Notes: a model not told the origin generated them from the sequence alone. A stretch of 37,124 nt of DNA from a candidate division WOR-3 bacterium (GCA_965649115.1 CBFGJN010000015.1:1-37124), one strand, 5' to 3'; shown: positions 2,723 to 37,111, counted from the stretch's first letter. Program-made: numbers and translations.

Positions 2723-2918
2723 AATAGAAATAATTATATTTTCGGAATTATTAGAGTCTAGTAATTATTGCTAAATGTCTGATAATCAATTACTTATAAA
2801 ATTTTCAAGAAAATTATTGATTTTTAGGGGGGCTCCGTAAGTAAAGCCGAAGGTTTAATTATAGGGTGGGTGGGAGAAATATAATAAAATAAATAGTTCC
2901 AGAATTACTAAACACAGC
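2723..2918 (+). mobile_element. Degenerate copy of the ~204-bp MITE-like element, preceded by a right-end fragment
   Basis: Matches element motifs (GATAATCAATTACTTATAAAATTTT, AAGCCGAAGGTTT, GGGTGGGTGGG, right end TTACTAAACACAGC). The left TIR is truncated. Confidence 0.8.
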
Positions 2919-2929
2919 AGAGCAATATT

Positions 2930-3133
2930 GCTTTGTCCAAATAATTATTGTTAAGCGATTGATAATCAATAATTTATAAAATTTTGAAGGAAATTGTTGA
3001 TTTGTTGGGGGGATTATTAGGGGGGCTCTGCCCCCCAAAGCCGAAATATGGGTATTTTAAAGGCGAAGCCTTGAATATAGGGCGGGTGGGAAAATAAAGA
3101 AAAATAAATAATTCCAAAATTTTTGGACACAGC
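2930..3133 (+). mobile_element. Full-length MITE-like element (204 bp) with 11-bp flanking direct repeat
   Basis: Ends GCTTTGTCCAAA...TTTTTGGACACAGC. AGAGCAATATT occurs at 2919-2929 and 3134-3144. Confidence 0.9.
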
Positions 3134-3156
3134 AGAGCAATATTAAGATTATCCTT

Positions 3157-3162
3157 TAAAAT
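3157..3162 (+). promoter_or_regulatory. Putative -10 box of a leaderless promoter
   Basis: TAAAAT 6 nt before ATG 3169, with no SD. The same pattern recurs at most operon starts. Confidence 0.6.
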
Positions 3163-3168
3163 TTTCAA

Positions 3169-3681
3169 ATGTTAAGTCCTGAACAAATAATTGAGAGAGC
3201 AAAAAAGTGGGAAATTGTGTTTGATTTATATGATAATCAAAAACCTATTAATGTTATAGTTGAAAGAAAAGTTAAAGATGGATATGTTGTGAAATTAAAG
3301 GACTTGGATTTAAATGGTTACTTAAAAACAAAGAAAAAACTTGAAATTAGTCAAGAAATTGAAGCAATAATTATAAGTGCCAATTATCTTACGAAAAGAA
3401 TTGAACTTAAACCTGCCAATTCAAAAATTAACGAAAAGAAAATTTTTAAAATTCTTAAAAAATCAAAAAAGAATAATACCCCTATAAAAGCAAAAATTTT
3501 AAATGTTATAAATGGTGGATTTGAAATATCTATTTTTGGTCAAAAAGGATTTATTCCACCTTCACACATTCCTAAAAAAATTTCTGAAAATTTATTTTAT
3601 CATATTGGCAAAGAATATCCTGTTTATATTTTAAGAGTAAATAAAGAAAACATATTAGCCTCTTTAAGACAAATTGAATAA
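3169..3681 (+). CDS. S1 RNA-binding domain protein (two S1 repeats; short RpsA-like)
   Basis: Two S1-like repeats: VKDGYVVKL...NGYL and VINGGFEISIFGQKGFIPPSHI...ENILASLR. Confidence 0.75.
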   Translation: MLSPEQIIERAKKWEIVFDLYDNQKPINVIVERKVKDGYVVKLKDLDLNGYLKTKKKLEISQEIEAIIISANYLTKRIELKPANSKINEKKIFKILKKSKKNNTPIKAKILNVINGGFEISIFGQKGFIPPSHIPKKISENLFYHIGKEYPVYILRVNKENILASLRQIE

Positions 3682-4153: not shown

Positions 4154-4180
4154 TCCAAAATTATAAAGCATAAAAAATAT

Positions 4181-4343
4181 GCCTTGCCTAGTAATTCTGA
4201 AATATAGATTATTTGTTATTTTGCCCACCCACCCTGAAAATAAGGCTTTGCTCCCCTATAATCCCCCATAAAATCAATAATTTCTTTAAAAATTTTATAA
4301 GTTATTTACTATCAATCACTTAACACCATTTGCTAGACAAAGC
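4181..4343 (-). mobile_element. Internally deleted MITE-like element (163 bp) with 11-bp direct repeat
   Basis: Ends GCCTTGCCTAGTAA...TTGCTAGACAAAGC. ATAAAAAATAT occurs at 4170-4180 and 4344-4354. Confidence 0.85.
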
Positions 4344-4354
4344 ATAAAAAATAT

Positions 4355-19301: not shown

Positions 19302-19918
19302 TCAATAACCTCTAATTCAACGGGTGCTGTTCCATCTTCAATTAAATCAATTTTTTTAGCACTAATATATGACAAATCAATTATTCTTCCTTTTTTAAAT
19401 GGTCCTCTATCTACAATTTTTACTTCAACAACTTTATTATTTTTTAGATTTTTAACCCTAACAATTGTTCCACAGGGAAGTGTTTTATGTGCAGCATAAA
19501 ACTTATTTTTATCAAAAATTAAACCACAAGCAGTTTTTTTACCTTGAAAATTATAACCATACCAACTTGCATATCCCCTTTGAATAAATTTTTCCTTTCC
19601 TCTTGGAATACTTTTTATAATAATTTTAACCTTTTCTTTACCTTTAATATCAATTATTTCAGAAGCTTTTTTTGAAATATGAATAATTACCCCTCTTTTT
19701 GGAAATAATCTATCATTTATTTTAACTTCAACACTCTTATGATTTTTTAAATTTATAACCTCCACAATTGTCCCAAATGGCAAATATGGATGAGCAGCAG
19801 TTAATAAAGAACCTTTATAAATTTCACCTGATGCAGTCTTTTTATTTTCATATTTTTTTGAATAAACAAGTGCATAACCTATCTCCTCTTTCGGATATAA
19901 AATTAGTAAAATAAGGAT
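19289..19918 (-). CDS. rlpA: RlpA-family lytic transglycosylase with two DPBB domains; apparent ATC start
   Basis: Domain 2 reads GYASWYG..KTACG..AAHKTLP..DRGPF..RIIDLS. The frame stays open upstream of TTG 19783 with domain-1 motifs (GYALVY..KKTASGE..TAAHPYLPFG) up to the stop at 19928-19930. Confidence 0.8.
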   Translation of the reverse strand: MLILLILYPKEEIGYALVYSKKYENKKTASGEIYKGSLLTAAHPYLPFGTIVEVINLKNHKSVEVKINDRLFPKRGVIIHISKKASEIIDIKGKEKVKIIIKSIPRGKEKFIQRGYASWYGYNFQGKKTACGLIFDKNKFYAAHKTLPCGTIVRVKNLKNNKVVEVKIVDRGPFKKGRIIDLSYISAKKIDLIEDGTAPVELEVIEWPY

Positions 19919-19953
19919 TTTAAAATTTTAAAGTTGGTGATCAATAACCTTAT

Positions 19954-20155
19954 GCTGTGTCCAGTAATTCTGAAAGTATTTATTTTTCTATATTTTCCCC
20001 ACCCGCCCTGAAAATAAAGCGGAGCTTTATAAACGCCCAATTTTCGGCTTTGGGGGGCGGAGCCCCCCTTTAATCCCCCCATTAAATCAATAATTTCAAA
20101 AAAATTTCATAAATTATTGATAGTCAAGGACTTAACATGATTTACTGGACAAAGC
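19954..20155 (-). mobile_element. Full-length element (202 bp), tandem unit 1
   Basis: Ends GCTGTGTCCAGTAA...TTACTGGACAAAGC. Flanked by AATAACCTTAT at 19943-19953 and 20156-20166. Confidence 0.92.
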
Positions 20156-20166
20156 AATAACCTTAT

Positions 20167-20370
20167 GCCTTGTCTAATAATTCTAAAAATATATATTTTA
20201 CTATATTTTCCCCGCCCACCCTGAAATAAAGGCTGCGCCTTTAAAATGCCCATTTTTTGCCTTTGGGGGCTTTCGCCCCCCATTAGACCCCCCCATAAAA
20301 TTAATAGTTCCGATAAAATTTTTATAAGTTATTGGTTACCAACAACTTAACATTATTTATTGGACAAAGC
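20167..20370 (-). mobile_element. Full-length element (204 bp), tandem unit 2
   Basis: Ends GCCTTGTCTAATAA...TTATTGGACAAAGC. A third AATAACCTTAT lies at 20371-20381. Confidence 0.92.
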
Positions 20371-20381
20371 AATAACCTTAT

Positions 20382-20468
20382 AAAAACTCTTATGAAATTA
20401 TTAATTTCATTGGAGGGTTTAATGTAGGGCGAAGTTTTCAAGCCAAAAGCTTAATTACTAAACAAGGC
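20382..20468 (+). mobile_element. Decayed element copy
   Basis: Partial interior followed by right end TTACTAAACAAGGC. Confidence 0.65.
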
Positions 20469-20479
20469 AAAGAAAAATT

Positions 20480-20624
20480 GCTTTGTCTAATAAAAATTTT
20501 AAGAAAACTATTTATTTAAAGCCTCCCAATGCCGAAATATGGGAATTTTTGAGCCGAAGGCTTAAATATAGGGTGGGTGGGAAAAATAAGAAAAATCAAT
20601 AATTCCAGAATTATTAGACACAGC
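20480..20624 (+). mobile_element. Internally deleted element (145 bp)
   Basis: Ends GCTTTGTCTAATAA...TTATTAGACACAGC. The flanks AAAGAAAAATT and AAAAGAAAAACT form an imperfect direct repeat. Confidence 0.85.
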
Positions 20625-20661
20625 AAAAGAAAAACTAATTTATGGTTTAAAATTTCAAATT

Positions 20662-21771
20662 ATGCGAATTGGTATTCCGAAAGAAATAAAAACAGAAGAA
20701 TATAGAGTGGCTATAACACCATCAGGTGTTGAAGAGCTTGTTAAAAGAGGACATGTTGTATATGTTCAAAAGGATGCTGGCATAGGAAGTGGAATAAATA
20801 ATGAAGATTATGAAAAAGCAGGAGCTAAAATTGTTGAAAGTCTAAAAGAAGTTTATGAAAATAGTGATATTGTAGTAAAAGTAAAAGAGCCTCAAAAAGA
20901 AGAATATGAATTTTTGAGAGAAGATTTAATTTTATTTACATTTTTACATTTAGCAGCGGATGAAGAACTAACAAAAGTACTATTAAAAAAGAAAGTTATT
21001 GGAATTGCTTATGAAACCGTTGAATTAAATGGAGAATTACCATTATTAAAACCGATGAGTGAGATAGCAGGAAAAATGGCTGTTCAAGAAGGAGCAAAAT
21101 ATCTTGAAAAACCATTTGGAGGAAGGGGTGTTTTACTTGGTGGTGTTCCAGGCGTTCCTCCTGCAAAGGTTGTAATAATTGGTGGAGGAACAGTTGGAAC
21201 GAACTCTGCATTTGTAGCATCAGGAATGGGAGCAGATGTTTATGTTTTAGATATAAACATAGAAAGATTAAGATATCTAAATGAAATTATGCCAAAAAAT
21301 GTTAAGACTTTATATTCAAGTAGTTATAACATAAGGGAAGTTATAAAGGATGCAGATTTACTAATTAGTGGTGTTTTAATTCATGGTGCGAAAGCTCCCA
21401 AAATTATAACAAGAGATATGTTGAAAGAAATGAAAGATGGAGCAGTATTTGTTGATGTAGCAATAGATCAAGGAGGTTCATCTGAAACTTCAAGACCAAC
21501 AACACATAAGGAACCTGTCTATAAAGTAGATAATGTTGTTCATTATTGTGTTGCAAATATGCCTGGCGCAGTTCCAAGAACATCAACATTTGCATTAACT
21601 AATGCTACAATAAAATATATTATAAAATTGGCTGATTTGAAATGGCCAGATGCTATTTTAAATGAACCATCACTAAAAAAAGGTGTTAATACTTATAAAG
21701 GACATATTACTTATCCCGCTGTTGCACAAGCATTCAATTTAGAATATGTCCCAATTGAAAAATTACTTTAA
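20662..21771 (+). CDS. ald: Alanine dehydrogenase
   Basis: Motifs IGIPKEIK.EEYRVA, VKVKEP, PMSEIAG, VAIDQGG and HYCVANMPGAVPRTST. Confidence 0.97.
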   Translation: MRIGIPKEIKTEEYRVAITPSGVEELVKRGHVVYVQKDAGIGSGINNEDYEKAGAKIVESLKEVYENSDIVVKVKEPQKEEYEFLREDLILFTFLHLAADEELTKVLLKKKVIGIAYETVELNGELPLLKPMSEIAGKMAVQEGAKYLEKPFGGRGVLLGGVPGVPPAKVVIIGGGTVGTNSAFVASGMGADVYVLDINIERLRYLNEIMPKNVKTLYSSSYNIREVIKDADLLISGVLIHGAKAPKIITRDMLKEMKDGAVFVDVAIDQGGSSETSRPTTHKEPVYKVDNVVHYCVANMPGAVPRTSTFALTNATIKYIIKLADLKWPDAILNEPSLKKGVNTYKGHITYPAVAQAFNLEYVPIEKLL

Positions 21772-22489: not shown

Positions 22490-22572
22490 AGCCCCTTGCC
22501 GAAAAATGGGACTTTTAAAGGCGAAGCCTTATTTTCAGGGCGAGTGGGCAAAATAAGAAATAATCATAATTT
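22490..22572 (+). mobile_element. Truncated element copy
   Basis: GCCGAAAAATGGG...AAGGCGAAGCCTT...GGGCGAGTGGG. Confidence 0.8.
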
Positions 22573-22583
22573 ATAAAGCTTTT

Positions 22584-22706
22584 GCTTTGTCCAATAAAAG
22601 CTTTGAGGAAATTATAGATTTAAACGGGTATTTATAAGGCGAAGGCTTAAATATAGGGTGGGGAAAATATAGAAATAATCTACATTTCAGAATTCTTAGA
22701 CAAAAC
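22584..22706 (+). mobile_element. Internally deleted element (123 bp) with 11-bp direct repeat
   Basis: Ends GCTTTGTCCAATAA...TTCTTAGACAAAAC. ATAAAGCTTTT occurs at 22573-22583 and 22707-22717. Confidence 0.88.
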
Positions 22707-22737
22707 ATAAAGCTTTTGCTTTAAAATTTTAAAACTT

Positions 22738-24129
22738 TTGAAGGGTGTTTTAATTTTATATCTTTTAACTGTTCTTTTATTCATATTTGGACTTAAATTA
22801 TTACAAAAACCTTCAACAGCAAGATTAGGAAATTTAATAAGTGCAATTGGAATGTTAATAGCAATAATTGCAACATTTGTAAGTCAGCATTTTGAAAATT
22901 ACTTTTTAATTATATTAGCCATGATTATTGGCAGTATTATTGGAGTGTTTTTGGCATATTGGGTAGATATGAGAGCAATTCCTCAATTCGTAGCTATGTT
23001 AAATAGTTTTGGAGGGGCTGTTTCTTCACTTGTTGGAATTTGGGCATTCTTAGACAATAAAATTCCAAGTTTTATAAATCCAATTCAATTTTACATTTCA
23101 GTTGGATTTGACACATTTATAGGAACTATTACATTTGTAGGTTCCGTAATAGCATTTTCAAAATTACAAGGTATAATTACTGAAAAACCTATTCTCATTC
23201 CTTTTAAAAATTTCTTAAATTTAGTGCTTTTAATTGTTAGTATATTATCAATTCTTCTATTTGCGTTAACTAAAAATTCGTTATTTTTATGGCTTGTTCT
23301 AATTGGTTCTGTAATTCTTGGTTTAACATTAACGCTTCCTATTGGCGGTGCAGATATGCCTGTTTTAATATCACTTCTAATATCTTACGCAGGTCTTTCT
23401 GCAACATCACTTGGTTTTACATTTGGAAACTATGGTTTAATTATGGTTGGTTCACTAGTTGGAGCTTCAGGCTTAATTTTGACAAGAATAATGGCAAAGG
23501 CAATGAATAGGGATTTTTGGGGTATATTACTTGGAAATATAACACCCCCTGAAATTACTAAAACATCTGATGATAAGAGCTTTTACGAAGGTAAAATCAA
23601 AACTGCATCCCCCGATGAAGTAGCAAGTATATTAGAGTTTTCTAAAACAATTGCAATTGTTCCTGGATATGGTTTAGCAGTTTCGCAAGCTCAGCAGGTA
23701 TTAAAAGAATTGTACGAATTATTAACAAAGGATGGCAAATTTGTATATTTTGCTATTCATCCTGTTGCTGGAAGAATGCCAGGACACATGAATGTTCTAT
23801 TGGCAGAAGTGGATATACCCTATGATAGAATGAAAACACTTGAAGAAAGTAATGAACTATTTCCTCAAACTGATGCTGTTATTGTTGTTGGAGCCAACGA
23901 TGTTGTCAATCCACTTGCAAGAGAAAAAGAAGATTCACCCATCTACGGCATGCCAATTTTGGATGTTGATAAAGCAAAAGTAGTAATTGTTATAAAAAGA
24001 AGTTTAGCTCCTGGATTTGCAGGTGTTGTAAATCCATTATTCATAAATGAAAAAACAATTATGGTTTTTGGAGATGCAAAACCTGTTTTAAGTGAAATTG
24101 TGAAAGCATATAAGGAATTAAAAGTTTAG
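22738..24129 (+). CDS. pntB: NAD(P) transhydrogenase subunit beta
   Basis: Motifs PIGGADMPV, AMNR, VPGYGLAV.QAQ, IHPVAGRMPGHMNVLLAE and GANDVVNP. TTG start. Confidence 0.96.
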   Translation: MKGVLILYLLTVLLFIFGLKLLQKPSTARLGNLISAIGMLIAIIATFVSQHFENYFLIILAMIIGSIIGVFLAYWVDMRAIPQFVAMLNSFGGAVSSLVGIWAFLDNKIPSFINPIQFYISVGFDTFIGTITFVGSVIAFSKLQGIITEKPILIPFKNFLNLVLLIVSILSILLFALTKNSLFLWLVLIGSVILGLTLTLPIGGADMPVLISLLISYAGLSATSLGFTFGNYGLIMVGSLVGASGLILTRIMAKAMNRDFWGILLGNITPPEITKTSDDKSFYEGKIKTASPDEVASILEFSKTIAIVPGYGLAVSQAQQVLKELYELLTKDGKFVYFAIHPVAGRMPGHMNVLLAEVDIPYDRMKTLEESNELFPQTDAVIVVGANDVVNPLAREKEDSPIYGMPILDVDKAKVVIVIKRSLAPGFAGVVNPLFINEKTIMVFGDAKPVLSEIVKAYKELKV

Positions 24130-24714
24130 ATGTTATTGAATAAATCAAAAAATGAAATAGATTTGAAAATTGTCTATTACGGACCTGCCCTTGCAGGGAA
24201 AACCGAAAATTTAAAGTACATTTATTCAAAAATTAGTCCTCAAAGAAGGGGGGAACTTGTTAAAATTGATACAAAAGGTGAAAGGACATTATATTTTGAT
24301 TTTATGCCCATTGAAATTAAGTTAGAACCTTATAAGTTAAAAGTTCATTTATTTTCTGTACCTGGACAGGTATTTTATAAGGTTTCAAGAAAATTAGTTT
24401 TAAAGGGATTTGATGGTATTATCTTTGTAGCTGATTCTTCACCTGATAGAAGAGAAGCAAACATTCAAAGCATGGAAGAAATGTTATCAAATATACAAAG
24501 TGATGGATTAAAAATGGAAGATATACCAATTGTCTTACAATATAATAAGAGAGATTTAACGAATGCTCTATCAATTGAGGTTTTACAAAACGATTTAAAT
24601 AGAAATAATTGGCCATATATATTAGCAGTAGCAAGTGAAGGAAAGGGAGTTATTGAAACCTTAGATTTGTGCTTAAAATTAACAATAAAAAATGTAAAGG
24701 CAAAAATTATATGA
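24130..24714 (+). CDS. mglA: MglA-type small Ras-like GTPase
   Basis: Motifs KIVYYGP...GKT, RTLYFDF, VPGQVFY and YNKRDL. Confidence 0.85.
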   Translation: MLLNKSKNEIDLKIVYYGPALAGKTENLKYIYSKISPQRRGELVKIDTKGERTLYFDFMPIEIKLEPYKLKVHLFSVPGQVFYKVSRKLVLKGFDGIIFVADSSPDRREANIQSMEEMLSNIQSDGLKMEDIPIVLQYNKRDLTNALSIEVLQNDLNRNNWPYILAVASEGKGVIETLDLCLKLTIKNVKAKII

Positions 24715-25892: not shown

Positions 25893-25930
25893 AAGCCGAA
25901 GGCTTAATTATAGGGTGGGTGGAAAAAATA
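25893..25930 (+). mobile_element. Element remnant (hairpin 2 plus G-tracts)
   Basis: AAGCCGAAGGCTTAATTATAGGGTGGGTGGAAAAAATA. Confidence 0.75.
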
Positions 25931-30309: not shown

Positions 30310-31152
30310 ATGAAAAACTTAAAAAACTTAACTTTGATTTTCATTCTTTTAGCTTGTCAAACAAATGCCAAAACGATACAAAAGGAAGATGAAAAAATCG
30401 TACCGATTTCTATAACTACACCAAAAATTTCTCAAATTGAATATAGTGAGATTTTCACTGCTAATATAAGTGGAGACCCATTAACCTTAGTTTTTCCAGA
30501 AGTTCCTGGGAAATTTATAAACTATGTAGTAAGTGAAGGTCAATATGTAAATAAAGATGAAGTTATTGCTTACCTTGATAGAAGCACGACGGGACTTGAA
30601 TTCAACAATTATCCGATTAAATCTCCAACAAGTGGAAGAATTCATCTTCTAAATATAAATGCTGGTCAATTTGTTTCTCCTTCAAATCCAATCGCCCAAA
30701 TATATGGAAATCCAATAGCAATTATCAAATTACCATCAATCTATTATAATAAAATAAAAATCGGTGATGAAATTGAAATTTTCTCTAATGAATTAGGAAT
30801 TAAGGAAAAAACAAGAATTTACTATAAAAGCACAATTATAGACCCATTAAGTCAAACATTTGAAATAAGGGCAAGAGTTTATAAATTCCCAATAGGTTCA
30901 TTTGCTAATGCCAAAATTACATTAAATAAGAAAGATAAAACGATCGTTATTCCAACATCTGCAATTCTTGGTCTTGATAAAAAATATGTTTTTATTGTAA
31001 ATGGCGATAGAGCCTATAAGAAAATTGTAAAAATTGGTATATCTAATGAAGAAATGACAGAAATTCTTGAAGGTTTAAGTTTAAATGATACAATTGTTAT
31101 TGAAGGTCAATATAATTTACAAGATGGACAAAAAGTGAGGGTTATAAGATGA
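30310..31152 (+). CDS. RND periplasmic adaptor (lipoprotein)
   Basis: Lipobox LLAC, VSEGQ.V.K, IKSP.SG, and C-terminal EILEGL..ND.IV.EG. SD GGAGG. Confidence 0.9.
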   Translation: MKNLKNLTLIFILLACQTNAKTIQKEDEKIVPISITTPKISQIEYSEIFTANISGDPLTLVFPEVPGKFINYVVSEGQYVNKDEVIAYLDRSTTGLEFNNYPIKSPTSGRIHLLNINAGQFVSPSNPIAQIYGNPIAIIKLPSIYYNKIKIGDEIEIFSNELGIKEKTRIYYKSTIIDPLSQTFEIRARVYKFPIGSFANAKITLNKKDKTIVIPTSAILGLDKKYVFIVNGDRAYKKIVKIGISNEEMTEILEGLSLNDTIVIEGQYNLQDGQKVRVIR

Positions 31153-34491: not shown

Positions 34492-36327
34492 TTAAAACGG
34501 AACAAAAACTTTAAATAAATTATGTTTTGTCTTTATGAAATAAACACCTTTTTTCAAATTCACATTTTTAATCAACCTTCCATTTAAATCATAAACATAA
34601 CTTGGAATTTCATCATCACAAACAGCCATTCTATTCTTAACAACACAAGTTTTCGTTTTATATGTTATTTCATTTAAACCAACAATTGAATTGTTAATTG
34701 GCAATGCGATAGCAGATGGATAGAGATAACCAGTCCATATAGTATTTAAAGCAACTAATTTATTAGGGTCATTTCTCTTAAATGGACCTCCATTATTTGG
34801 ATTGGGTTCATAAGAAGGATATTTTGAAGATGTTATATAAATTCTAATTCTATGGTTTTTATTAAAAACATAAGCTGTGCTCCTTAATGGTATCATAAAG
34901 AAATAAATACTATCAGGATTTAATAGATCTTCCCTATCAACACCATTTCTATGTCTTGCTTTTAAAACACCTTCACTAATTAATATACTTCTTCCATCAG
35001 GATAAACATCTGCTAATAACACAATAAAATCAGTATCAAATCTATTTGAACTTGCATATAAGTATAAAACTGGTTGTCCAATAACTGCTAATGGCTCACT
35101 TAATGTGTTTGATGTAAATATCAAGACATCACTTCTATTATTTATTGGATTTAAATTTCTTGGTCCAAATAGTATACTATCGTAATTGGGCTGACCTATA
35201 TTATCAAAGCCTCCAATTGCCGGTGTGGGATTATTTGGGTCGTAAATATAAGGATAACCAGAAGAAGGATAATTAGGAAAGTCAGTTTTAAGGGAATCTC
35301 CTACTAAATACCAGTATCCATAATAATATCCACTTGGTGGAAAATTATCAGCTTCTATCCACTTGTTCCACTTCGTAGTATCATTAGTAGAAACATCTCC
35401 CATTAGGTAAAATTTTACTCTTTTTTTAGATGCCCAATCACCAGAACCTCTAAGCCAATACAAAACCCAATCAGCAAGAAGCCAAAAATAATCAATCTTG
35501 GAATTACTTGGAAAGATAAAGTCACCAACTGTATCTTTATTTATGAGATGTATCCAAGGTCCTATTATAATATATTGATAATCTCTTGCTCTTGAACCTC
35601 CATAAAATCTTATATGATTGAATGCAGAAATTGCACCCTCTGTAAAGGCATCAAACCAACCAGTAATATGTAGCATAGGAGCATTGAATTGACCTGATGT
35701 TCTTAAATAACCATTTACCCAAGCCCATGGGCTATTATTTGAATAAACTGCATATTTTTCTACTGTATCAAGCCACATAGGCGCTCCTACTCCATAAAGC
35801 CAAGTTTCTACAATGGACTTTCTTAATTCTCCCCCATAAAATACTTCATAATACAAAGAAAAACCTGCTATCGCTGGTGCTGCACATATCAGGTCAAAAT
35901 CTGTTCCTTCTAAAAAGTACTGAGCAAAGCCAAGCGCTGAACCACCAACTGTGCAAATTGAATCATTTGACCAATGCTGACTTATAATCCATAAAGCAAC
36001 TTCCTTACTATCCTGATTTGGACCCCAACCTTCAGCAAAGAAAGGAGTTTTTATTCCTCCACTTTCTACAAATCCCCTAAATGTACTTACAACATATGCA
36101 AAGTTATTACTAGTTATTAGAGCTATTGTTGAGCTATCTGCAGGTTTATTTGGATCAGAAATATTGGGATGCCCCATCGTATCATAAGGCGTTCTTACTA
36201 AAATTGTAGAGAATTTCTTATTTATTGTGTCATCTGGAAGCCATACATAAACTTTTATAGGTGTTCCATCTGACATTATAACATCAGTCTTAAAATGTAT
36301 CCAGGTTATGAAAAGGGTACTAAGCAT
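34492..36327 (-). CDS. CocE/NonD family hydrolase with a T9SS-CTD-like tail
   Basis: Motifs MSDG, RTPY, GGSALG, GWFD, IGPWIH and YDP.NP.P. The C-terminus reads VYDLNGRLIK..LKKGVYFIK..KVFV. Confidence 0.9.
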   Translation of the reverse strand: MLSTLFITWIHFKTDVIMSDGTPIKVYVWLPDDTINKKFSTILVRTPYDTMGHPNISDPNKPADSSTIALITSNNFAYVVSTFRGFVESGGIKTPFFAEGWGPNQDSKEVALWIISQHWSNDSICTVGGSALGFAQYFLEGTDFDLICAAPAIAGFSLYYEVFYGGELRKSIVETWLYGVGAPMWLDTVEKYAVYSNNSPWAWVNGYLRTSGQFNAPMLHITGWFDAFTEGAISAFNHIRFYGGSRARDYQYIIIGPWIHLINKDTVGDFIFPSNSKIDYFWLLADWVLYWLRGSGDWASKKRVKFYLMGDVSTNDTTKWNKWIEADNFPPSGYYYGYWYLVGDSLKTDFPNYPSSGYPYIYDPNNPTPAIGGFDNIGQPNYDSILFGPRNLNPINNRSDVLIFTSNTLSEPLAVIGQPVLYLYASSNRFDTDFIVLLADVYPDGRSILISEGVLKARHRNGVDREDLLNPDSIYFFMIPLRSTAYVFNKNHRIRIYITSSKYPSYEPNPNNGGPFKRNDPNKLVALNTIWTGYLYPSAIALPINNSIVGLNEITYKTKTCVVKNRMAVCDDEIPSYVYDLNGRLIKNVNLKKGVYFIKTKHNLFKVFVPF

Positions 36328-36686: not shown

Positions 36687-36697
36687 AAAATTTTTAT

Positions 36698-36884
36698 GCT
36701 TTGTCCAATAATTATTGTTAAACAATTGATAGCTAATAACTTATAAAAGATTTATTAAAATTATTGGTTTATAGGGGGGCAGAGCCCCCCAAGGCAAAAG
36801 ATGGGGTATTTATAAGCCGAAGGCTTATTTTCAGGGTGGGTAAAATAAAGAAAAATAAATGATTTTGGAATTACTTGACGCACT
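36698..36884 (+). mobile_element. Near full-length element (187 bp)
   Basis: Left end GCTTTGTCCAATAA, both hairpins present, decayed right end TTACTTGACGCACT. Confidence 0.88.
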
Positions 36885-36895
36885 ATCAAAACACT

Positions 36896-37100
36896 GCTTT
36901 GTCCAATAAATAATGTTAAGACCTTGATAATCAATAACTTATAAAATTTTTAAGGAAATTATCGATTTTATTCGGGGATTTTAAGGGGGGCGAAGCCCCC
37001 CCGCAGCCGAAAAATGGGGATTTTTAAGCCGTAGGCTTAAATTCAGGGTGGGTGGGCAAAATATAGAAATGATTATATTTCCAGAATTATTGGACAAAGC
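36896..37100 (+). mobile_element. Full-length element (205 bp) with perfect TIRs
   Basis: GCTTTGTCCAATAA...TTATTGGACAAAGC (15 bp if the flanking T/A are included). Confidence 0.93.
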
Positions 37101-37111
37101 AATTTGATTTT

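Follow-up and report, generated by a model that had tools for sequence, protein, structure and literature searches.

Head-to-tail arrays of miniature transposable elements at a fixed distance from a promoter-like motif in a candidate division WOR-3 bacterium

The stretch of DNA analysed here (the window, 37,124 nucleotides [nt]) originates from a candidate division WOR-3 bacterium (GCA_965649115.1 CBFGJN010000015.1:1-37124). It is contig C15 of a 1,848,020-bp, 99-contig hot-spring assembly that is 94.5% complete; the G+C content within the window is 24-35%, and the sequencing runs containing the stretch were hot-spring metagenomes, with no RNA run among those listed. At 19943-20381, two diverged units are bordered and separated by identical short repeats. 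The units are MITEs (miniature transposons with inverted repeats), small, non-coding and present in many copies, because they carry 16-nt terminal inverted repeats and are flanked by 9-bp target-site duplications. Their insertion site is fixed by the distance from a host promoter motif, a landmark overlooked in the original prediction, which had been made from the window alone. We consider it likely that promoter-anchored, self-renewing insertion of these MITEs, driven by an IS903-like transposase, builds head-to-tail arrays of unrelated copies. Base-exact and orientation-specific placement relative to the putative core promoter was found at about 200 of 707 promoter-like sites and in at least two species.

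The 11-mer AATAACCTTAT occurs in the window at 19943, 20156 and 20371 and at no other position (expectation by chance 0.13), and none of 100 shuffles gave three copies, in agreement with the three perfect 11-mers around two units that had been predicted. The true linker is the 9-mer ATAACCTTA, not the 11-mer: at the inner junctions, the outer A and T of AATAACCTTAT belong to the element tips, and at the two outer positions they are flanking bases that agree by chance. The three copies of the 9-mer (19944-19952, 20157-20165 and 20372-20380) enclose a promoter-proximal, full-length MITE of 204 nt (unit 1, 19953-20156, plus strand; nhmmer 187.5 bits, model positions 1-205) and a distal, full-length MITE of 206 nt (unit 2, 20166-20371, plus strand; 179.0 bits). 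The array is anchored at the promoter motif at 19923-19933, which reads AAATTTTAAAG on the plus strand and CTTTAAAATTT on the gene strand (minus) and serves a minus-strand DPBB/RlpA-like gene. Motif and target are separated by a 10-nt spacer (19934-19943), in accordance with the genome-wide spacing rule given below. Both units start with TGC(T/C)(G/T)TGTC... and end with ...GACAAAGCA, which together form the 16-nt terminal inverted repeat, and they are 75-77% identical to each other (77.5% in one comparison). When unit 1 was folded as single-stranded DNA, the termini paired and internal G+C-rich hairpins were formed (z = -4.0). Tandem Repeats Finder reported no period near 213 in its 57 rows for the window, and no Rfam matches were obtained in the window. 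In a simple scan of 19700-20750, no terminator-like site and two sigma-70-like sites were found, the latter fewer than the shuffle mean of 4.6.

To search the genome with nhmmer, a profile was built from the two window units with one round of refinement (205-nt model). The search gave 726 matches that cover 98,204 bp, or 5.3% of the 1.85-Mb genome, and 225 of them reach both ends of the model. The genome is compact and the elements are almost all intergenic. In 180 full-length copies, the 16-nt terminal inverted repeats were nearly invariant at at least 10 positions. Among the 103 solo elements with both ends complete, 47 had a perfect 9-bp duplication, 8 more a duplication with one mismatch, and 5 an 8-bp duplication; target duplications longer than 9 bp were not found in this genome. 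In nearly half of the solos, the flanks were unrelated, which suggests that copies have rearranged with each other or that the profile missed neighbours from other families. Altogether, 96 elements are flanked by a perfect 9-bp duplication.

With the elements oriented by their interior, a motif that is conserved and constant in its distance was seen in the left flank, and no such motif in the right one. The layout of the left flank is (TTG)AAAATTTTAAAG, 10 nt, the 9-bp target, and the left end of the element. The left terminus was located 19 nt past the motif in 155 cases and 18 nt past it in 47, compared with 3, 6 and 2 cases at 17, 20 and 21 nt, respectively. In a second (near) register, which is 8 bp away from the far one and represented by 58 cases, the terminus lies 10-12 nt past the motif and the 9-bp duplication starts 1-3 nt past it. 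The sequence AAATTTTAAAG occurs 573 times in the genome (about 20 expected), mostly 4-9 nt from CAT, the start codon of an opposite-strand gene, and the complement of the motif was found 5-18 nt upstream of 32 of the 45 tRNA genes. Judged by its position, and not by transcripts, the motif would be a core promoter element at about the -10 region, with very short leaders or none. The uniform motif CTTTAAAATTT near gene starts, in the window also at 3154-3164, 20645-20655 and 22719-22729, suggests that transcripts in this lineage are mostly leaderless or near-leaderless.

Promoter-like sites were defined as the motif with no more than one mismatch plus CAT within 14 nt (n = 707). An element terminus was present at 18-20 nt in 147 of them, at 9-13 nt in 52, and elsewhere within 40 nt in 17, and 491 sites were empty. 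The motif is independent of the element, since these 491 sites are empty and since the motif is kept at orthologous promoters in three relatives with few or no elements (G001, G003 and G004). Arrays with an assessable left flank were anchored at the motif in 58 of 66 cases (44 in the far and 14 in the near register). Multi-unit arrays made up 59 of the 255 anchored heads and 7 of the 91 unanchored ones (odds ratio 3.6, p = 0.001), and 196 anchored elements had no detected partner.

Genome-wide, 80 doubles, 14 triples and one quadruple were counted. Of 218 adjacent pairs with complete facing ends, 100 were separated by 9 bp, 8 by 8 bp, and 98 by no less than 60 bp; of the pairs spaced by 9 bp, 96 were in head-to-tail orientation. 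A count based on termini only, which also takes in other element families sharing the same ends, gave 119 gaps of 9 bp, 11 of 8 bp, and 176 of at least 40 bp. The linker length is thus not freely varying, as the original prediction required. Equal 9-mers on both sides were found for 56 of 109 array members and 55 of 103 solos, and the probability that an unconstrained 9-mer stays intact at 77% identity is 0.095. The core of the original prediction, serial independent insertions that re-duplicate the same target, holds, the 9-mers being regenerated target duplications. The promoter-proximal unit had a closer relative elsewhere in the genome than the next unit in 18 cases, and the reverse was seen in 5 (p = 0.002). 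By array class, the counts were 15 versus 4 for arrays whose linker is identical to the promoter-side 9-mer and 13 versus 3 for those in which it differs. In the window, the best relative elsewhere was 86.8% identical for unit 1 and 84.1% for unit 2. Array growth therefore appears to be polar, with the promoter-proximal unit usually the younger one, as far as sequence identities can be used as a clock.

The enzyme moving the MITEs is likely an IS5-family, IS903-like DDE transposase. At one metagenome locus (L054), a complete element of 1,040 bp was found that has the same ends as the MITEs and contains an open reading frame (ORF) of 298 amino acids (aa). The ORF product matched NF033579 (IS5 family; 227.6 bits, cut-off 140, model positions 1-287 of 289), PF01609 (DDE_Tnp_1; 99.6 bits) and PF13737 (DDE_Tnp_1_5; 69.7 bits), and was 28-31% identical to the transposases of IS903B, IS903D, ISAba12 and ISNov2 over 88-95% of the length. 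In the genome under study, 16 contig edges end 101-127 nt inside one identical left end resembling that of L054, as is typical of a recently active repeat present in multiple copies, through which the assembly could not be continued. The flanks of these 16 insertion sequence (IS) left ends were read by eye: 12 are located 18-19 nt from the motif (two mismatches at most), 3 are 9 bp from another element's end, and 1 is neither. The 9-mer TCGCTTTTT flanks the IS left end at the C22 edge. At its start, C1 has an R-type end that is followed by the same 9-mer and then directly by a MITE; the pair would fit one recent IS insertion in the promoter-proximal slot of an occupied site, and no read spans it. 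Eight identical contig-edge sequences, one of them at the start of C1, possibly represent the right end of the IS. No multi-copy IS appeared in this genome after the MITEs were masked; the smallest contig in the assembly is 2,807 bp, so a 1-kb repeat contig would be dropped. The original prediction had drawn an analogy to array growth by Cas1 or casposases. The element with matching ends encodes a DDE transposase, and the likeness to CRISPR and casposons is one of analogy only.

Larger elements with the same ends were also observed. When pairs of terminal inverted repeats 600-3,500 bp apart were searched for in this genome, only one had a perfect duplication. This stretch (C11:31359-32784, 1,426 bp) has left and right element ends and the 9-bp duplication TATATCTTT at motif+10, and it contains a truncated MITE and a 246-aa ORF that has its own promoter motif with MITEs attached and gave only a faint DUF6602 match (E = 0.065). 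It resembles a composite that has carried a host gene along. In metagenome contigs, a 1,533-bp element (L045:2631-4163, also L081:1078-2610) shares the terminal repeats and is located at motif+10, with AGCCTTAAA as its perfect 9-bp duplication. The element is nearly filled by a 492-aa ORF that matched TIGR01766 (58 bits, cut-off 32) and guided_TnpB (59 bits, below the cut-off of 100), had no Pfam match, and has no cysteines between the RuvC-like motifs; a TnpB-like gene thus appears to ride as cargo in an IS903-type element. A third stretch (L053:533-2610, 2,078 bp) has a MITE-like left end at motif+10, is bracketed by the 9-mer AAATTAAGG and has an imperfect right end. With its ORFs of 271 and 170 aa, it may be another cargo-carrying composite.

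In the mechanism that we propose, the transposase would make a 9-bp staggered cut in a target that starts 10 nt (less often 9, or 1-3) past the promoter motif, roughly at the upstream edge of the would-be -35 box, and the element would be inserted in a single orientation with the left end toward the gene. The target would be duplicated and its promoter-side copy would keep both sequence and distance, hence the site would be usable again. Each newcomer would shift the older elements outward behind an identical 9-bp linker, and arrays would grow at the promoter-proximal end from independent, unrelated copies. Equal linkers, head-to-tail order, unrelated neighbours and age polarity would all result because the site is rebuilt at a fixed distance and orientation relative to the promoter. 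We infer that re-hits rather than rearrangements build every array, and the same applies to the manner in which the transposase would read the promoter. A tentative extension, which we find possible and still somewhat doubtful, is that a one-gene DDE transposon reads RNA polymerase or sigma factor on the promoter, and not DNA alone, in a Ty3-like manner, and that the arrays are chronological records with the newest copy beside the gene. If such reading of the transcription apparatus were true, up to 28% of the counted promoter-like sites would carry transposon DNA at about -35.

Ordered arrays might also be formed by tandem duplication of a unit with its linker, followed by divergence or by gene conversion that spares the linkers. 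Such a process would yield equal linkers and head-to-tail order, and about 700 copies could serve as conversion donors; copies about 76% alike are, in general, poor recombination partners. The kinship of neighbours was determined for 50 pairs, with each unit covering at least 150 model positions, and 364 copies were compared. The mean identity of neighbours was 0.772, compared with 0.757 across all pairs, and thus equals the family background. In none of the 50 pairs was the neighbour the nearest relative of either member (median rank 159.5 of 363), in a recently active family where, for 103 of the 364 copies, a relative of at least 95% identity exists elsewhere. Likewise, no neighbour pair (0/50) formed sister tips in a maximum-likelihood tree, though the tree holds 115 cherries. 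Tandem duplication was therefore rejected as the origin of the arrays, as the original prediction had maintained for recent duplication. It would also leave the promoter spacing of the solos unexplained, and we assign it next to no probability. Random insertion combined with selection, in which only elements just upstream of promoters are harmless enough to persist, would agree with the compact genome, in which nearly all elements are intergenic, and a site upstream of a promoter is plausibly neutral. This explanation is very improbable, given that the spacing is exact (19 and 18 nt, with few cases at 17, 20 and 21 nt), that sites further upstream should be as harmless, that only one orientation occurs and the right flank lacks the motif, and that IS copies with identical ends, hence recent, are already at the same spacing.

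The original prediction had the target set by a resident element end. In the strictest form of this idea, similar to IS30 and IS911, the transposase would recognise a resident terminus and insert 9 bp away from it, and the link to the promoter would be secondary. Several observations are in its favour: of the 96 elements with a perfect duplication, 68 abut another left end distally and 22 have the element's own tip, AAAGCA, immediately left of the target; the three identical IS left ends located 9 bp from another element's end (3/16) lack the motif; and a CA behind the motif, which resembles the tip, goes along with a more frequent use of the near register (15/106, compared with 8/128 and 29/473). 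There is also a precedent, as IS30 inserts beside its own repeats in a strict IRL-IRR orientation, according to excerpts of PMC9333248. However, the 196 anchored elements are partnerless, so the first hit needs the promoter, unanchored heads seldom gain neighbours (7/91 versus 59/255), 12 of the 16 IS left ends, which are recent, keep the motif spacing, and no tip-like sequence is found beside the target in the 10-nt register. Targeting by ends only is thus unlikely in our view. Because solos sit at the same spacing from the motif, the first hit does not depend on a resident end, and in this respect the original prediction has to be changed; some evidence supports a contribution of the resident end. 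A resident left end beside the target probably makes the site more attractive, and hot promoters could alternatively account for the excess of re-hits. The anchored solos and the small number of arrays away from promoters are observations favouring the promoter as sufficient for targeting.

The promoter-anchored, self-renewing mechanism also has several points to its disadvantage. The promoter role of the motif was deduced from its position, and the proxy for age, identity to the nearest relative, is indirect. While 68 of the 96 perfect-duplication elements are directly followed by another left end, only 199 of the 707 promoter-like sites (28%) are occupied, and for this reason the simple model understates the importance of the resident end or else of certain hot promoters. 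In 22 of 64 arrays, the first linker and the promoter-side 9-mer are not the same. These arrays were attributed to composite moves of pre-formed dimers, which probably occur, but a test of 50 dimers for such moves gave no pair with both units at least 90% alike. In the 20 doubles with both flanks known, the order of 9-mers was AAA in 8, AAB in 3, ABA in 4, and ABC in 5; the ABA pattern is expected from a dimer moving as a composite, and the polarity there is compatible with it, orientation being kept. Unrelated loci share some non-trivial linkers although their units are unrelated: the linker AGAGTTAG(T) is common to C1:59471 and C3:37628, and GTGGTGGGT to C17:16803 and C21:27432, and the units around them are no more alike than the family background. 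Regarding the driver, the flanks of the L054 copy are unequal, with no matching 9-mers. No transposase was found in this genome with PF00872, PF01609 and PF12762 (IS256, IS4/5 and IS1595), and rve (PF00665) had no match in five genomes of the genus. The interior of the IS in this genome was deduced from contig edges only, and tblastn with the TnpB-like protein of L045 revealed no copy in this genome.

The distribution of the elements was examined by BLAST with the unit, which was present in 2 of 4 other species of the genus and absent from the 36 more distant genomes searched; G001 and G004 had no matches and G003 had two. The pattern motif-N18/19-terminus was found 27 times in G002 (reversed control, 0) and gave 0 matches each in G001, G003, G004 and G005. 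At orthologous promoters, the numbers of units in G002 and in the genome under study were 1 vs 3, 1 vs 2, 1 vs 2, 1 vs 3, 1 vs 1, and 1 vs 0, and array length therefore differs between species. At the promoter with one unit in each, the 9-mers differ and the elements are 66% alike. The orthologue of the left promoter of the window array in G002 (L011:59-297) has a single MITE with a 17-bp direct repeat (one mismatch), which spans exactly the near and far registers, as if one nick had been made in each. An orthologous empty site for the window array was not obtained: the right-hand neighbour differs in all four relatives, and the pntB-side region is likewise non-syntenic. Scanning one genome per species for the exact pattern end-9N-end gave 14 stretches, 7 of them in a Candidatus Hydrothermia bacterium metagenome-assembled genome; the other 7, in unrelated taxa, are probably chance palindromes. 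In metagenome contigs, motif-N19-terminus was found in at least 125 stretches. Among the metagenome contigs matching the window, none spans the window array, as the contigs break within repeats. The low-support single joints 19931->20680 (X5) and 19933->20590 (X6) were indistinguishable from other organisms or repeats.

The elements resemble the IS903 group and ISAba12 in that one DDE transposase of about 300 aa is encoded, the element measures about 1,040 bp, the duplication is 9 bp (here seen in the MITEs and in the 1,533-bp element of L045), and a short MITE is mobilised in trans, here probably. The core of the terminal repeat, GCTTTGT, is also shared, the repeat here being TGCTTTGTCC... 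ISAba12 (1,039 bp) has the terminal repeat GGCTTTGTTGCACAAA and a 9-bp duplication and mobilises MITEAba12, as stated in excerpts of PMC6382973. The transposase described here differs in being only 28-31% identical to those of the group. In the same paper, the targets of MITEAba12 are AT-rich with no identifiable pattern, the word 'tandem' is absent, and the account has no fixed promoter distance, fixed orientation or arrays of the kind seen here. WTTYA-N9-TRAAW, the target motif published for IS903 (PMC2577343), was matched by 2 of the 96 sites on the left and by the same number on the right. As with IS30 and IS911, an independent copy lies beside a resident end, the junctions are head-to-tail (IRL-IRR), the spacer has the length of the duplication, and the orientation is strict (excerpts of PMC9333248). 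Unlike here, the IS30 spacer is 2 bp instead of 9 bp, the transposase belongs to a different family (IS5-type here), the junctions are reactive and short-lived, whereas hundreds persist here, and there is no promoter anchor.

CRISPR Cas1-Cas2 and casposons are similar in their polar growth beside a leader-like landmark and in the regeneration of the site in each round. However, what stays constant in CRISPR is the repeat, each spacer being new, whereas in the present arrays it is the 9-bp linker, with the long unit as the new part. Nothing indicated an involvement of Cas1 beside the DDE transposase with matching ends, although Cas1 itself was not searched for. Ty3 and Ty1 at Pol III genes and Tn7 at attTn7 rely either on an integrase plus host factor or on a protein dedicated to targeting, and the number of their sites is one or a few. 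They share with the present elements a fixed distance and orientation from a landmark outside the duplicated target, with the gene spared, and differ in that a small one-ORF IS here uses hundreds of promoters. The single site of Tn7 is described in the available text of PMC10969869. The literature searches and the available text of two reviews of prokaryotic MITEs (PMC10969869 and PMC11602168), in which the word 'tandem' is absent, yielded no account of MITE or IS arrays that are anchored at promoters; they did not extend to the 1998 paper by Hu and Derbyshire about the preferences of IS903 for targets and orientation, in which a relevant precedent may be contained. The elements are of a known kind (IS5/IS903-type IS and MITEs), and the base-exact, oriented, promoter-anchored and self-renewing targeting is new as far as we found.

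Insertion sequences of the IS5/IS903 type are regarded as loose and sequence-biased in their target choice. To our knowledge, 'safe-haven' targeting has so far been known mainly from yeast retrotransposons and Tn7-like elements, and the promoter-anchored placement would be a bacterial example of it. The proposed mechanism would offer a simple basis for self-sustaining hot spots, in which a duplicated target and an unchanged landmark give the same site again. It would explain how unrelated repeats come to form ordered arrays with neither recombination nor slippage during replication, and from such arrays the course of transposition over time could be read. With a single ORF of about 300 aa and 16-nt ends, the system is small and directly testable, and it could be of interest as a tool for promoter-proximal insertion if the distance rule holds. 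The arrays also cause assembly breaks (the 16 contig edges here), which is relevant for annotation.

The intergenic region 19923-20655 consists of two arrays that meet mid-way, each with the left ends toward its own promoter. The opposing array (minus strand) includes a remnant unit (20381-20469, left-end tip at 20469), which was recognised by its terminal repeat and by an nhmmer match (20319-20457, minus strand, model 59-189) that overlaps the right part of unit 2. It is followed by the 9-bp linker AAGAAAAAT (20470-20478), equal to the 9-mer at 20626-20634 if shifted by one base, and by a shortened unit proximal to the pntA promoter (20479-20625, minus strand; nhmmer 20487-20625, model 1-162, 96.1 bits). 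The pntA promoter side comprises the 9-mer AAAGAAAAA (20626-20634), a spacer (20635-20644) and the motif GTTTAAAATTT (20645-20655, plus strand). The ATG of pntA is at 20662, and its ORF carries the Pfam domain AlaDh_PNT.

A second array (2756-3164, minus strand) has two units, 2756-2919 and 2929-3134, with the 9-mer GAGCAATAT at 2920-2928 and 3135-3143; these are followed by a spacer (3144-3153) and the motif (3154-3164), and the gene starts at 3169. A near-register unit (4180-4344, within 4158-4353, plus strand) is preceded by the motif AAATTATAAAG (4158-4168) and CA, with the 9-mer TAAAAAATA at 4171-4179 and 4345-4353. More element fragments lie behind this unit, and the anchoring gene (minus strand) starts at about 4150. 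Upstream of pntB, which starts at 22738 and anchors the array 22492-22707, there are two shortened units (22492-22729 with the promoter side, minus strand), with the 9-mer TAAAGCTTT at 22574-22582 and 22708-22716, followed by TG and the motif (22719-22729). The other locus-specific 11-mers of the original prediction belong to these arrays and were located as predicted: AGAGCAATATT at 2919 and 3134, ATAAAAAATAT at 4170 and 4344, and ATAAAGCTTTT at 22573 and 22707. ATAAAAAATAT additionally has chance copies at 30977 and, on the opposite strand, at 25930. Further arrays extend up to the contig end (36454-37124, minus strand), with units at 36697-36882 and 36895-37101 plus fragments.

Between pntB and a gene for an FtsX-type permease, a 194-aa ORF (24130-24714) matched Arf-family small GTPases (E = 5e-7). 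The region of the X-Pro dipeptidyl-peptidase gene (34662-36314) has a second copy at C12:1-1623, which is 83.7% identical. Several other contig pairs share segments of 0.7-1.4 kb that are 83-90% identical, and these segments may be paralogues or derive from a second strain in the bin.

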